Source: Dehalococcoidia bacterium (GTDB taxonomy: Bacteria > Chloroflexota > Dehalococcoidia > Plut-88900). From it: a stretch of DNA of 64,000 bases. Position numbers and translations under genes: made by a program. The stretch lies in contig CBDBLV010000004.1 of assembly GCA_965207225.1 (NCBI GenBank), positions 32,001-96,000 on the forward strand, read 5' to 3'. Of this stretch, positions 10,006 through 33,211 are shown piece after piece. A model generated the notes under the pieces. The model did not search any database and was not told the origin of the DNA. It saw only the letters and a list, made by a program, of their open reading frames with translations. How positions within the stretch are numbered: the stretch's first letter is position 1; each line of letters begins with the position of its first letter.

Positions 10006-10074
10006 CGATGTGCGCTGGTCGGGATTGTTCCCTGGACTCGAGGGACCCTCTCTGAGGCGGAGAGTGGTCACCTT

Positions 10075-10236
10075 CCGTTCAGGCAGGTCTCCTGACTTGC
10101 GGGTTGGGTCTGTGCCCCGATCCCTTCCCACCGGCGTACCGGCAGTGGTCTCGGGCCAAGTTCCCCGCTTACAGTGGCGCTACCGTGGCGGTCTTTCACC
10201 GCCTTCCCTATTCTCCCTGGGCGGGCACCTGAACGG
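10075..10236 (-). ncRNA. Cobalamin (AdoCbl) riboswitch
   Basis: Minus strand reads AGGTG..AATAGGGAAGGCGGTGAAAGACCGCC..GCCACTGTAA..CCACTG..GGGAAGG..AAGTCAGGAGACCTGCC (B12 box). Closed by CCGTTCAGG/CCTGAACGG; upstream of the btu/cob operon. Confidence 0.96.
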
Positions 10237-10265
10237 GCAGTGTATATGTTTTTGAGTTGCGGGGT

Positions 10266-29296: not shown

Positions 29297-30772
29297 TTAG
29301 GGATAATACAACTGGCGGGCGGCGTGCTCCAACTCGGGGCGGAAGTCGGGGTGGGCGATGTTGATGAGGGCCTGGGCGCGTTCGCGCTGGGACTTGCCGA
29401 GAAGCCGGGCGACGCCGTATTCGGTGACTACGTAGTCGGCGAAGGTGCGGGGGATGGTGATGGCCGATCCCACTTCGTGCCGGGCCACGATCTTGGAAAC
29501 CGTACCTCCGAGGGCCGTGGAAGTGAGAAGGGTGATGCCGCGGCCACCTTCGGAGAGGACTGCGCCGATGTGAAGCTCGGGCTGGCCGCCGGTGCCGTTG
29601 TAGAGTCTGCCACCGAAGAGGGTCTCGGAGTTGATCTGGCCGGTGAGGTCGATAGAGACGGCGTTGTTGATGGCGACCTGGTTGGGGTTGGAGGCGATGT
29701 TGCGGATGTTGAGGATGTGATCGGCGTCCCATAGTTCGACGAGGGGGTTAAGGTGGGCGAAGGCGACCTCGTCGGGGGTGCTTCCCATGAGGCCCGAGAA
29801 GACGGTCTTGTCCTTATGAAGGACTTTACGGCTGCCGTTGACGATGCCCCTTTCGACGAGGGAGATGATGCCGGGGGCGGACATCTCGGCGTGCCAGCCG
29901 AGGTCCTTCTTGTCGTCAAATACGCCGAGGGTGGGGAGGTAGACGCCGGGGGTACCGACGCCGATCTGGAGGGAGTCGCCGTCGCGGATGAGGCCGTGGA
30001 CGTACCCGGCGATCTTGAGAATGGCGTCGGAGGGCGGGACCCAACCGGCCCAGCGGGCCCAGCTCCTGACCTGGGAGACATCGGCGTACATGAGGGCGGG
30101 GATGGCCTCCTGGCGCTGGTAGCCGGACATGAGGGGGGAGATTCGCTCGAGTTCGGACCTGAGCTCGCCTTCGGGGAGGGTATCGAGGAGCTTCTGGCCA
30201 TCTTCGAGGGAGAGGGCGGGAGGGGTGTGTGCGACGAAGCGGTCGATCTCCGAGACGTGGATGTAGTTGGCGCCGTAGGTGCGTATCTGGTTTTCGTCGA
30301 CCTGGGCGATAACGCGGGAGGCGTGGGCGGCGACGCGGCGCTTGTCCCATAGCTCGCCGCCGAAGCTGCAGAAGCCTCGTTGGTCGGGCGGGGAAGTGAC
30401 GATGAAAAGGTAGTCGACGGCCCGGGGCTGGCGGCCTTGTTCTTCGAAAGGCTTCAGGCCGGTAGAGAGGAGGGAGGGCTCAAAGTCGACATAACGCTGG
30501 TCGTGGGCGGGCCGCGCCACGTCGCCGAGGTAGAACATGATGGTGATGGGGAAGGAATTGTCCCATCCGGGCCGGAGCCAGCCGGGGTCGTAGTGGCAGC
30601 CGAGGAGGTGGAGCTTTACGTTGCACAACTCGTCACGACGGGCGGCGAGGGCGTCGAGGAGGCGGGTAGGCTCGGGGCTGACGGAGACGGTGACCTCATC
30701 GCCGGAGGAGATAGTGGAGACGGCATCCTCGGGGGAGACGAGGTTATTGCGGTAGTGTTGTCGCCAGTCCAT
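29297..30772 (-). CDS. Acetyl-CoA hydrolase/transferase (4-hydroxybutyrate CoA-transferase-like)
   Basis: MDWRQHY..VSPEDAV, PPDQRGFCSFG, LQIGVG, HAEM, IDLTGQINSE, GTGGQ, VVTEYGVA, IAHPDFR. Confidence 0.9.
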   Translation of the reverse strand: MDWRQHYRNNLVSPEDAVSTISSGDEVTVSVSPEPTRLLDALAARRDELCNVKLHLLGCHYDPGWLRPGWDNSFPITIMFYLGDVARPAHDQRYVDFEPSLLSTGLKPFEEQGRQPRAVDYLFIVTSPPDQRGFCSFGGELWDKRRVAAHASRVIAQVDENQIRTYGANYIHVSEIDRFVAHTPPALSLEDGQKLLDTLPEGELRSELERISPLMSGYQRQEAIPALMYADVSQVRSWARWAGWVPPSDAILKIAGYVHGLIRDGDSLQIGVGTPGVYLPTLGVFDDKKDLGWHAEMSAPGIISLVERGIVNGSRKVLHKDKTVFSGLMGSTPDEVAFAHLNPLVELWDADHILNIRNIASNPNQVAINNAVSIDLTGQINSETLFGGRLYNGTGGQPELHIGAVLSEGGRGITLLTSTALGGTVSKIVARHEVGSAITIPRTFADYVVTEYGVARLLGKSQRERAQALINIAHPDFRPELEHAARQLYYP

Positions 30773-31047
30773 AGAAGGGGAAGGGAGAGGAGTCTCGGCA
30801 ATGTTAACACAGGACTGGCGCTCCAATGGGTCCAGTTATTCAGTTGTGAGGTTGGGGGGCGGGGGTTATGGGTGGGGGGCGGGCTCCTGTTGGCTTGGGG
30901 GATGGGCTAGGAGAGGTCGGAAGAGGGGAATGCCAGCGCCCCCTCATCGGCGTAAGCCGGGGCGTCGGGGGTCGGAACGTGGGCAATTGCCCGCCTGGGG
31001 AGACGGGCAATCTTCGCAAGGCCGGGTAGGGCGTTGCGGGCGTACCT

Positions 31048-31323
31048 CCGCGCAAAGGCGCGGGCATCCACAGCGGAAGGGAAAGCTCGCAAAGGGTTAG
31101 CTGTGGGAAATACATCTGCGGCGAGCCTGGGCAGGCATCCACGGCGGAGGGGGGCACTCGCGGGGGTTAGCCGTGGGAACATCTGCAGCGAGTCAAAGCA
31201 GGCATCCATCCGTACGCCTCGCTGGGCGCAGGTGGGGTCCTTCCGCGCCGAGGCGCGGGCATCCACGTCCGGATGGGGCAGCAGGGTTAGTTGCTGCTCC
31301 CGGGTGACGCCGGACGGCAGTGG
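31048..31323 (-). ncRNA. Candidate structured RNA or DNA: four tandem hairpin modules (CCAC..GTGG-ATGC-CYGC..GCRG)
   Basis: GGCATCCA on the + strand at 31063, 31134, 31201 and 31258, with compensatory base changes in three separate stems (see findings). Confidence 0.5.
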
Positions 31324-31538
31324 TCGAGAGGGGGCGCTGGGCTTTGAACTTCCACGGGGGAAGGGTGAAGGGCCGAGGGACACGGTAGGTGGAAAGGGGG
31401 TAAGGAGGAGGCGCGTGTCGGCAGAGGGTCGGTCCCATACCGACCGGGTGCGACGGGGCCATGTGAGGCCATTGCGACTCATGGGACTCCTTTGGTCCTT
31501 TCCTGTATTGGTGGTCCGACATACAGGGCCGGTGCCAC

Positions 31539-31568
31539 GAACATAGGTATAGCACATACATTTACCAA
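31539..31568 (-). promoter_or_regulatory. Putative promoter with a degenerate LexA/Cheo-like box
   Basis: Minus strand TTGGTA-N17-TATGTT. GAAC-atag-GTAT at 31539-31550 overlaps the -10. Confidence 0.35.
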
Positions 31569-31640
31569 ATCAATAGGTGGTAGAAGGGGTTTGGGGACAA
31601 AGGGAGGTGTGACAAGGAAAGATGTGGGTGGTCAAGTCCT

Positions 31641-31668
31641 AGATCCCTCGCGGGGCTTCGGGATGACA
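31641..31668 (+). repeat. REP-like palindrome family B copy
   Basis: AGATCCCTCGCGGGGCTTCGGGATGACA. Confidence 0.7.
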
Positions 31669-31855
31669 GGGAAGGAGGTGGGGGCGGTTGACGGCCGCGA
31701 GAGGTCCGTCGTGGGGCATTGGGATGAGAGGGGAGAAGGAATGACGGGTGTGGGGGGTTCCTATAGAATACGGCGGCTTGTTCCCGTTGGTTGAGAGGGG
31801 TGTGTGGAGAGGTCGGGTTGGGAAGCAGATAGTGCAGGGTGGAGGCCCGCAGAGA

Positions 31856-33094
31856 ATGAAGCAGAGCCGTACTGCCTGGTTGACCCGCTCCCGTGCGCTG
31901 AGCTCGCTGGAGCATCGGGGGTGGAGGAGGCTGTGGTTCGTCAGCCAGCTTTGGCACCTGCCCTTCTGGATGGACTACATCATCCTGGGATGGGTGATCC
32001 TGGAGCGGACGGACTCGCCGTTCCTGGTGGCGCTGGTCGGGGCGGCGCGGCTTCTGCCGATGGGGACGCTGGGGTTCGTGGCGGGGACGCAGGCCGACAG
32101 GTGGCCTCGAAAGAGCATGTTGGTCGGGGCACAGGGTTTGAACTTCGTGCTGTCGGCGGGAATGGGAGTGGCCCTGCTGCTCGACCTGCTGGAGCTGTGG
32201 CAGATGTACCTAGGGGCATTTCTCATCGGGATTGCCTGGGCAATCGACTACCCGGTGAGGCATTCGATAATCCGAGACGTGGTGCCGGAGGACGTGGTGG
32301 TGAACGCGATGGCGATAAACGTGGCGTCGTGGATGGGGTCGGCGATGGTGGGGAGGTGGGTGGCGGGATGGATGCTGGACGTGGCGGGGCCGGGGGAGGC
32401 GTACATATTCATCGCGGTGTCGGTGCTGCTGGGTCTGCTTTTCGTGCTTCGGGTACCGGTGCCGAGGGCAGTCAAAGTGGCCGCGGTGCCTGAGTCGATG
32501 ATCAAGAGCGTGACGTCGGGGCTGAGGTACGTGTGGGGGAACGGACCAATTAGAGGCGTGCTGCTAATCACTCTCGGGGCGAACATACTACTGTTTCCAC
32601 ACATACAGCTGCACGCGGTGTTTGCGAGGGACGTGTATAACGTGGGGGCCACGGGGCTGGGGTTCCTGAGCGGGATGGACGGACTGGGATCGATGATTGG
32701 GTCGATCACGATAGCGGCACTGGGGACGCTGAGATACAGGGGCCGGATATTCGTCGTGGGGTCAACGGTGCTGGGGATAGGGGTGCTGCTGTTCAGCCTG
32801 ACCCCGACGTTTGGGCTGGCGTTGCTGGCGCTGCTGTTTGCAGGATTCGGGCAGGGAGGCTTCACGACGATGCAGACGACGATAGCGACGACGGCGTCGA
32901 CGCCGGAGATGAGGGGTCGGGCGATGGGTGCGGTGGCAATGGCGATCGGGTCTCTGCCGCTGGGGATGGTATACATCGGGGCGCTGGCGGAGTGGATCGG
33001 GGTGCAGAGGGCGGTAACGTACAGCAGCGTGGCCTTCTTGGTAGTGGTGCTGCTGACGGCGGTGACGCAGCCGGGGATCCGTCGGGTGGGGTGA
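31856..33094 (+). CDS. MFS transporter (MFS_3/EntS-like)
   Basis: WVILERTDSP, GTQADRWPRK, EMRGRAMG; likely start MKQSR at 31856. Confidence 0.88.
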   Translation: MKQSRTAWLTRSRALSSLEHRGWRRLWFVSQLWHLPFWMDYIILGWVILERTDSPFLVALVGAARLLPMGTLGFVAGTQADRWPRKSMLVGAQGLNFVLSAGMGVALLLDLLELWQMYLGAFLIGIAWAIDYPVRHSIIRDVVPEDVVVNAMAINVASWMGSAMVGRWVAGWMLDVAGPGEAYIFIAVSVLLGLLFVLRVPVPRAVKVAAVPESMIKSVTSGLRYVWGNGPIRGVLLITLGANILLFPHIQLHAVFARDVYNVGATGLGFLSGMDGLGSMIGSITIAALGTLRYRGRIFVVGSTVLGIGVLLFSLTPTFGLALLALLFAGFGQGGFTTMQTTIATTASTPEMRGRAMGAVAMAIGSLPLGMVYIGALAEWIGVQRAVTYSSVAFLVVVLLTAVTQPGIRRVG

Positions 33095-33123
33095 GGGGGG
33101 AGGGTCCCACCCTGGGGAGAGGA

Positions 33124-33164
33124 ATCACCCTCACCCTAGCCCTCTCCCATCGAGGGAGAGGGGA
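33124..33164 (+). repeat. REP-like palindrome family A (CACCCTCACCCTAGCCCTCTCCC..GGGAGAGGG)
   Basis: Related copies at 39610, 46840 and 62772, and within 34338 and 60917. Confidence 0.8.
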
Positions 33165-33211
33165 CAGGACCCCACCCCCACGGAGAATCTAAGAATAAGG
33201 AGTATGGATAG

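Follow-up and report, generated by a model that had tools for sequence, protein, structure and literature searches.

The 920-nt gap between the divergent acetyl-CoA hydrolase/transferase-family and MFS transporter genes of the window (the whole 64,000-nt stretch of Dehalococcoidia DNA that was analyzed) contains an array of hairpin modules at 31048-31323, and the question raised by this locus is whether the array is a structured RNA, a coding repeat, or an element that acts or spreads as DNA. Direct reading of the sequence confirmed the elements listed in a preliminary description of the array. Four GGCATCCA anchors lie at 31063, 31134, 31201 and 31258, with spacings of 71, 67 and 57 nt. Stem I occurs in two versions (CCACAGC/GCTGTGG at 31068-74/31100-06 and CCACGGC/GCCGTGG at 31139-45/31170-76), as does stem II (CCGC and CUGC). 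Both pairs of complementary loops are found (GCTCGC/GCGAGC at 31085-90/31121-26 and ACTCGC/GCGAGT at 31156-61/31188-93), and CUAACCC occurs three times on the minus strand. On that strand the motif GGAUGCC stands in the array at 31264-58, 31207-01, 31140-34 and 31069-63. The 64-kb window holds 6 matches to GGCATCCA, 4 of them inside the array (shuffled sequences gave a mean of 2.9, and 8/100 reached 6), and Tandem Repeats Finder reported 31063-31208 as a repeat of period 67 with 2.1 copies and 77% matches. The spacings had also been said not to preserve the reading frame in every case, which is correct for the individual distances of 71, 67 and 57 nt, but their sum is 195 nt, or 3 x 65, so that the array as a whole stays in frame, the unequal 67 and 71 compensating each other; related arrays have periods of 60 and 72 nt. 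The preliminary description had recognized no known RNA pattern in the array, and Rfam 15 gave no match to it at gathering scores in the scan of the window, and at E ≤ 10 over 30700-31900 the sole match was a chance one to CRISPR-DR9 (15.1 bits, E 5.3).

Comparison with paralogues indicates that the array is not a stand-alone RNA, and that it is the 3′ domain of a unit of about 640 nt, 30931-31573 (Table 1). Similarity to two other copies in the genome spans 30923-31681 and 30923-31580 of the window, with unit lengths of 660-755 nt, and the genome holds 3 full units; the 291-nt array region is present in three copies of 100, 94 and 93% identity. In a DNA search of 41 genomes, matches were confined to the genus of the window (8/8 other species; 0/32 other genera), and full-length units, 15 in all, came from 5/9 genomes of the genus (three each from G000, the genome of the window, G008 and G005, four from G007 and two from G001). 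The alignment of these 15 units starts at a σ70-like promoter and conservation stops sharply after GAGGGGGCGCTGGCA, past which only orthologous copies stay similar to each other. The preliminary description had proposed a modular structured noncoding RNA. The strand-specific structure of the minus strand and the compensatory changes in it agree with this proposal, but the array is one domain of a multi-copy unit that runs from promoter to closing helix, and it lies in an open frame.

Table 1. Coordinates of the repeated unit, its parts and the adjacent genes (positions in the window).
Feature	Position	Strand	Remarks
Whole repeated unit (promoter, 5′ core and linker, then the hairpin array with its closing helix)	30931..31573	-	similarity to paralogues
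Promoter-like site: TTGATT (31573-31568), 16-nt spacer ending TGC, TATACC (31551-31546)	31546..31573	-	alignment with paralogues
Structured 5′ core: GGAG (31490-31487) and ATG region predicted to pair with GCGCCUCCUCC, two hairpins enclosed	31401..31504	-	model R1, 105.2 bits
Open frame, 191 codons, conserved ATG (31482-31480) to TAG (30909-30907)	30907..31482	-	
Closing helix, 5′ arm, CCAGCGCCCCCUC	31328..31340	-	pairs with 30933-30945
Second long-range helix, 5′ arm GCGUC; partner GACGC at 30962-30966	31306..31310	-	RNAalifold
Four modules, each GGAUGCC + hairpin 1 + hairpin 2	31040..31264	-	array of the preliminary description
Hairpin UUGCCCG..CGGGCAA, decayed fifth module	30987..31010	-	aligns with GGAUGCCUGCG..CGCAGAUGAUU in relatives
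Closing helix, 3′ arm, GAGGGGGCGCUGG; end of conserved unit	30933..30945	-	pairs with 31328-31340
Acetyl-CoA hydrolase/transferase-family gene	29297-30826	-	AcetylCoA_hyd_C + AcetylCoA_hydro domains
MFS transporter gene	31748-33094	+	domain search

The putative σ70-like promoter near 31546-31573 was called from the alignment with paralogues: the site is conserved in position in 17/17 cores of the genome, and the paralogues read TATACT where this copy reads TATACC. A consensus promoter/terminator scan reported no terminator and missed the promoter on the minus strand of this copy, because the scanner requires a T at the last −10 position and TATACC ends in C.

The first ~165 nt of the unit, comprising the promoter, a leader hairpin, AAAGGAG, the ATG six bases later and a further ~80 nt free of any indel, occur 17 times in the genome, joined to at least 4 different downstream sequences. 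To describe this part of the unit we built a covariance model (R1; 104 positions, 42 sequences, 26 pairs), in which GGAG and GAG.CGC around the ATG pair with a downstream GCG.CUC.CUCC. The pairs were formed in 92.5% of 1092 cells, as compared to 33.6-45.6% with slid partners, and 25 cells were changed on both sides, against 6.6 ± 1.9 in shuffles (0/500 reached this value); one pair, for example, is G-C in 25 sequences and U-A in 12. R1 detected 17 copies in this genome and 9-19 in each of nine genomes of the genus, 121 in total. It found none in three other genera of the order and, in 145 other genomes of the class, nothing except two marginal matches at E about 0.09. Exact 17-mer scans of genome and metagenome contig collections returned only chance matches outside chromosomes titled 'Dehalococcoidia bacterium'; R1 matched 0/80 of the metagenome loci found in this way (80 of 120 loci were covered) and 1/48 of those in other genomes (80 of 110 genome loci were covered), the one match scoring 27.4 bits and being seeded by the 17-mer itself. 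The unit family thus appears to be confined to one Dehalococcoidia genus, and it matched no Rfam family.

Other subfamilies of this 17-copy family (L052, L053, L056, L059 and L062 in the genome of the window; L038, L043 and L044 in relatives) carry tandem ~165-nt duplications, and their frame reads DSTVVTIG...LPSLRVVERFWWTG...VWGC, which is domain-like by eye. A possible terminase origin of these subfamilies, which look terminase-nuclease-like by eye, was considered; searches of Pfam, PHROGs and PDB sequences gave no match. Judged by eye, the next gene 3′ of the 17 units of the genome runs in the same direction in 12 cases, in the opposite direction in 3 and unclearly in 2, and these genes include CoA-transferases, amidohydrolases, luciferase-like oxidoreductases, ETF, rpsB and others.

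Analysis of the 15 full-length units showed that conservation follows predicted pairing. The mean column difference was 0.064 at paired and 0.217 at unpaired positions, 3.4 times less (p = 5e-13), and GGAUGCC was nearly invariant across the 15 units. RNAalifold predicted 102 pairs, 9 of them with compensatory change, in nested long-range helices around local hairpins. When the stems of the preliminary description, both loop-loop pairings and the long-range helices were scored together, 95.9% of 1245 cells were paired in the 15 homologues, as compared to 25.5-46.6% with slid partners. Folding of the minus strand over 30931-31344 yields −195.6 kcal/mol (z = −6.48; 0/100 shuffles as good), the plus strand reaches a minimum free energy z of −3.31, and G-U pairs recur on the minus strand, both in the 15 units and in the modules. 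Because most stems are invariant among the 15 close units, covariation within them is weak, with changes on both sides in 6/83 pairs and pair-count measures that do not exceed those of shuffles; the decayed fifth module shows compensatory changes in 2 of its pairs in the 15-unit pairing table. Neither loop-loop pairing varies among the 15 units, and their CUCGC/GCGAG core recurs in more distant members, which is compatible with the proposed loop-loop contacts.

Stronger covariation comes from the closing helix. The GCGUC/GACGC helix is invariant in 15/15 units, and the closing helix, a perfect 13-bp inverted repeat with arms 380 nt apart, is likewise invariant in the 15 units. When more distant members were included, giving 21 homologues, two of its pairs varied (CG:15/UA:6 and CG:20/UA:1) with 0 one-sided changes; one further mismatch occurred in one sequence. 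The arms read CCAGCGCCCCCUC/GAGGGGGCGCUGG (n = 15), CCAGCGCUCCCUC/GAGGGAGCGCUGG (n = 5) or CCAGCGCUCUCUC/GAGAGAGCGCUGG (n = 1), the six distant array-type members with a changed helix (from G002, G003, G004, G006 and G008) possibly representing only two events.

The best covariation came from the modules themselves. When the genome was searched for junction motifs that have another copy in tandem, 52 modules at 14 loci were returned, namely three arrays of the 57/67/71 type, five with five or six units repeated at exactly 60 nt, and six 72-nt pairs. They share a common plan: GGAUGCC, hairpin 1 (CYGCGG..CCGCRG), AAGA.CCCC, and hairpin 2, which closes just before the next GGAUGCC. The hairpin-2 stems of 37 modules comprise 12 distinct arm pairs (CCGUGCC/GGCACGG, CCGCUCC/GAAGCGG, CCGAGGC/ACCUCGG, CCGGGGC/GCCCCGG, CCACGGC/GCCGUGG, CCACAGC/GCUGUGG and six others) with 6-7 of 7 positions paired, and stem positions 4-6 each show 4-5 pair types. 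This is the strongest covariation in the data; it and the other stronger signals come from paralogous modules and subfamilies and not from independent lineages. The compensatory changes between copies that had been reported earlier are thus borne out, the closing helix and the module stems both changing on their two sides, and where codon-type conservation in homologues had been named as evidence against an RNA, conservation of the pairing type was found. The comparisons indicate that selection acts on base pairs, not on amino acids. Taken together, these results lead us to favor, with modest confidence, the view that the modules are minus-strand RNA hairpin pairs forming the 3′ domain of a promoter-driven, helix-closed, multi-copy transcript of ~0.6 kb, whose frame is kept open without amino-acid constraint.

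An alternative, which we consider unlikely, is that the modules belong to a tandem palindromic repeat, selfish or neutral and loosely REP/BIME-like, that is spread and homogenized as DNA by slippage, unequal crossing-over and gene conversion and is tolerated only where the host frame is kept, so that the hairpins would reflect spread and not host function. The 52 modules at 14 loci, in three period classes, would fit this alternative, as would the confinement of the family to one genus and the surrounding intergenic DNA, which is rich in other short hairpin repeats (a neighboring one has 96 blastn matches). Module number and period also differ between species (72/72/60/60, 72/57/60 and 57/67/71), and unit copies of the same genome are more alike than orthologues, for which reason gene conversion could mimic part of the conservation described above. 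On the other hand, several units have counterparts at orthologous loci, between conserved flanks, in as many as four species, the stems are far better conserved than the loops, and the spread of a repeat hardly accounts for a covarying 13-bp helix that joins arms separated by 380 nt.

Enterobacterial REP/BIME elements are the closest reference for such a repeat. REPs are short G+C-rich imperfect palindromes, clustered and co-transcribed with neighboring genes, and their hairpins can stabilize transcripts; in BIMEs, REP pairs stand in alternating orientation, with many dispersed extragenic copies and a cognate RAYT (Y1 transposase). The modules examined here resemble them loosely, each consisting of two hairpins with G+C-rich stems of 4-8 bp. 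They differ in being strictly head-to-tail, with units of 57-72 nt and an invariant GGAUGCC linker, and in lying inside open frames at few loci, the unit here being closed by the covarying long-range helix. No match to PF01797, the Y1 (RAYT/IS200-type) transposase, was found in the genome of the window, which is 92.3% complete, whereas the control matched in 6/14 reference genomes. The BIME/REP-like alternative raised in the preliminary description thus fits only loosely, through the G+C-rich palindromic units: the order is head-to-tail, no transposase was found in the genome, and copies occupy orthologous loci. Dozens of dispersed, untranscribed copies, which had been named as the mark of a REP family, were not what the search returned, since the 52 modules are gathered at 14 loci, head-to-tail in transcribed units.

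A further possibility is that a real protein is made from the frame, highly expressed, disordered and built of proline/arginine-rich repeats, the hairpins being incidental or tuning its mRNA; on balance we regard this as quite unlikely. That the frame is maintained is clear. It is free of stops from the ATG to the end of the unit in 14/15 units (the exception, G007b, has a 1-nt deletion), and the distances from the ATG to the 3′ motif (537, 540, 543, 549, 552 and 603) are all equal modulo 3, so that every length difference is divisible by 3. Across the 17 units found in the genome, the ATG frame runs for 82-791 codons, 6786 in total, while the other two frames contain 224 and 113 stops over the same spans. 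Of 43 distinct copies taken from nine genomes, 39 have an ATG frame of at least 150 codons, as compared to 3 for frame +2, and the GGAG-N6-ATG signal is conserved in 42, although such counts overstate independence, because the copies are related and partly homogenized within genomes. Gene callers annotate units of this kind as hypothetical proteins, and a protein search with the product returned 21 unnamed predicted ORFs of relatives in public data and no other match.

By contrast, the amino acids of this frame show no constraint. Divergence by codon position was.162/.180/.155 (p = 0.92), with no third-position excess even in the conserved N-terminal 35 codons. The dN/dS of the ATG frame was 0.55-1.14, which does not set it apart from the two other frames, and that of the neighboring gene was 0.10-0.17; total divergence of the element amounts to about a quarter to three quarters of the synonymous divergence of that gene. 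Modules A, B and D are read in one frame and module C in another, conservation stops at the helix arm and not at the stop codon, with tails that differ between copies, and the product of the 191-codon frame has no match in Pfam or PHROG.

A sister gene family that uses the same module also speaks for a protein. The 60-nt arrays sit inside a 451-codon gene that lies outside the window (C4:181033-179678, minus strand), with a strong promoter of its own and an ATG that is nearly leaderless. In its product the arrays are read as 20-aa basic repeats ([TA]DACGTAPRKSPR...), after which come a conserved domain and an acidic tail. The three codon positions diverge by.054/.054/.148 in the globular domain after the repeats, a clear periodicity, and by.063/.079/.093 in the array part, with little periodicity. 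This family has 11 members in the genome, 5 close and 6 distant copies with 60-nt or 72-nt modules, and no match in Pfam or PHROG. The ATG frame of the 30931-31573 unit reads V/M-D-A at the junctions of modules A, B and D, in the same register as the T-D-A-C-G of the 451-aa repeats, and array-type relatives in other species read EADACGIAPRMISRSALLGV repeats. The earlier statement that the array is not a protein repeat therefore holds for selection at this locus and fails for its context, because the same module builds exact 60-nt in-frame arrays in a real protein gene family. One nucleotide repeat would then be used both as RNA structure and as coding repeat, a situation that is rarely in view.

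That a dimeric protein binds the modules as duplex DNA, in the manner of iterons or centromere sites, within an unconstrained stretch of frame (the lambda origin sits inside gene O) is highly improbable, for although the regular tandem units with two inverted repeats each and a frame kept while amino acids drift would suit it, the half-sites change together with no single recognition sequence among the 12 distinct arm pairs, the recurrent G-U pairs are A-C mismatches on the other strand, the long-range helix is meaningless in duplex DNA, and the neighbors of the unit, a CoA-transferase-family gene and an MFS transporter gene, include no replication or partition gene.

With regard to the RNA view that we favor, we compared the unit with known families of repetitive or large RNAs. 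In type III toxin-antitoxin arrays (ToxI), a structured RNA unit is repeated directly and in tandem after a promoter. Here too, RNA repeats stand in tandem behind a promoter-like site, but the next gene encodes AcetylCoA_hyd_C and AcetylCoA_hydro domains and is not a toxin gene, and the units are longer, unequal in length, and arranged in an array that lies in an open frame and is closed by a helix. Sponge RNAs such as CsrB/RsmZ, in which a short motif containing GGA recurs over many hairpins, titrate a protein; the array likewise has many hairpins and a repeated GGA-containing motif and could titrate a protein, but its motif lies between the hairpins and not in the loops, and a start signal and an open frame are present. 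A CsrA sponge was rejected, as PF02599 had no match in the genome of the window. OLE, GOLLD, ROOL, HEARO and raiA are large structured bacterial RNAs that were recognized by comparative genomics, with function unknown at discovery. The present unit is of similar size (~0.4-0.6 kb) and has nested long-range helices; it differs from them in having no Rfam match and 9-19 copies per genome in one genus, and in joining variable 3′ domains to a common 5′ core with the frame kept open. A CRISPR array was also rejected, because the whole unit repeats and the varying parts recur between arrays, so that they are not unique spacers. REP/RAYT elements, CsrB, ToxI-type arrays and the Rfam families each fail at least one defining test. 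In a small set of titles and abstract openings from the literature on sponge symbionts, Chloroflexi and repetitive extragenic palindromes, none concerned such elements.

Sequences from sponges contain the element in RNA data. A 424-nt contig in one sponge metatranscriptome covers 31055-31478 with 22 differences, and a 256-nt contig in a sponge metatranscriptome of another study covers 30973-31218 with 9 differences; both lie wholly inside the element, and as contigs they show no strand, ends or level and could stem from DNA carry-over. Two DNA runs cover the whole 4.2 kb. We found no cover of the flanking genes in the two RNA runs, a result that was not counted as evidence. Considering all of the above, the element is most likely a transcribed RNA with selected base pairs inside a frame that is kept translatable. 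It would be a new structured RNA element, probably translated, and is a candidate with no matching Rfam family.

How such an element might work can be sketched as follows. The transcript would start at the σ70-like promoter near 31546-31573, and its 5′ core would fold first, the Shine-Dalgarno-like GGAG and the start-codon region pairing with the downstream GCGCCUCCUCC. A C-rich linker would come next, and then the two-hairpin modules, spaced by GGAUGCC and shut by the 13-bp long-range helix. The core may gate ribosome entry. Rho is encoded in the genome, and the GC skew is +0.07 to +0.27 throughout the window (4-kb windows), so that the minus strand is C-rich. Such a very C-rich transcript would otherwise be an ideal Rho substrate, and ribosomes running through it would let the full-length, helix-closed array form instead of being cut short by Rho. 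The finished array would then act at the RNA level, as a multivalent platform or as a stabilizing structure, the invariant single-stranded GGAUGCC linkers between the hairpins being the likely contact sites. This combination of gating by the core, translation past Rho and action of the array as RNA is tentative, and we would rather expect some part of it to be wrong. A role of the unit as leader of the downstream gene is not needed, because that gene has its own conserved extended −10.

A generalization of this scheme, which we offer as speculation that is unlikely to hold, is a class of 'ribosome-escorted' structured RNAs, with a gated start and an irrelevant peptide, in which translation is kept so that the full-length RNA escapes Rho and folds into a helix-closed multivalent array that does the work. 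A bolder variant concerns the sister gene family, in which the 60-nt RNA module and its 20-aa arginine-rich unit may be a co-repeat, each binding the other. If the favored view is true, uncultured Dehalococcoidia possess abundant, highly structured RNAs that form a family specific to their lineage and are constrained in an unusual twofold way, base pairs being conserved and the frame kept open while amino acids are free. With these RNAs one could ask, in a natural setting, whether selection can maintain translation purely for its effect on an RNA.

Several features of the surrounding DNA were also observed. For the CoA-transferase-family gene, ATG 30772 is the probable start instead of TTG 30826: the alignment of four species turns codon-like from ATG 30772, and a conserved TGTTAACAT (extended −10-like) lies ~32 nt upstream of it. 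In two genes on the minus strand, C occupies 68% of third codon positions, and in a gene on the plus strand G occupies 63%, a contrast between the strands that is unusually marked. The sole Rfam match at gathering score in the window is a cobalamin riboswitch aptamer (RF00174) at 10065-10247 on the minus strand, 103.4 bits over the full model length. Just upstream of the promoter of the unit, at 31641-31678 and 31702-31739, stand two copies of another short hairpin repeat (AGATCCCTCGCGGGGCTTCGGGATGAC...); it is the 201-nt stretch with these AGATCCCTCGCGGGGCTTCGGGATGAC repeats that has the 96 blastn matches genome-wide, and it represents a separate, far more numerous REP-like family. Finally, a ~40-nt element at 33123-33166 is covered in all four runs by many unrelated contigs with loose ends on both sides, and its depths, which add up to 3479 and 5459 in the two DNA runs, mark it as a very abundant dispersed intergenic repeat.
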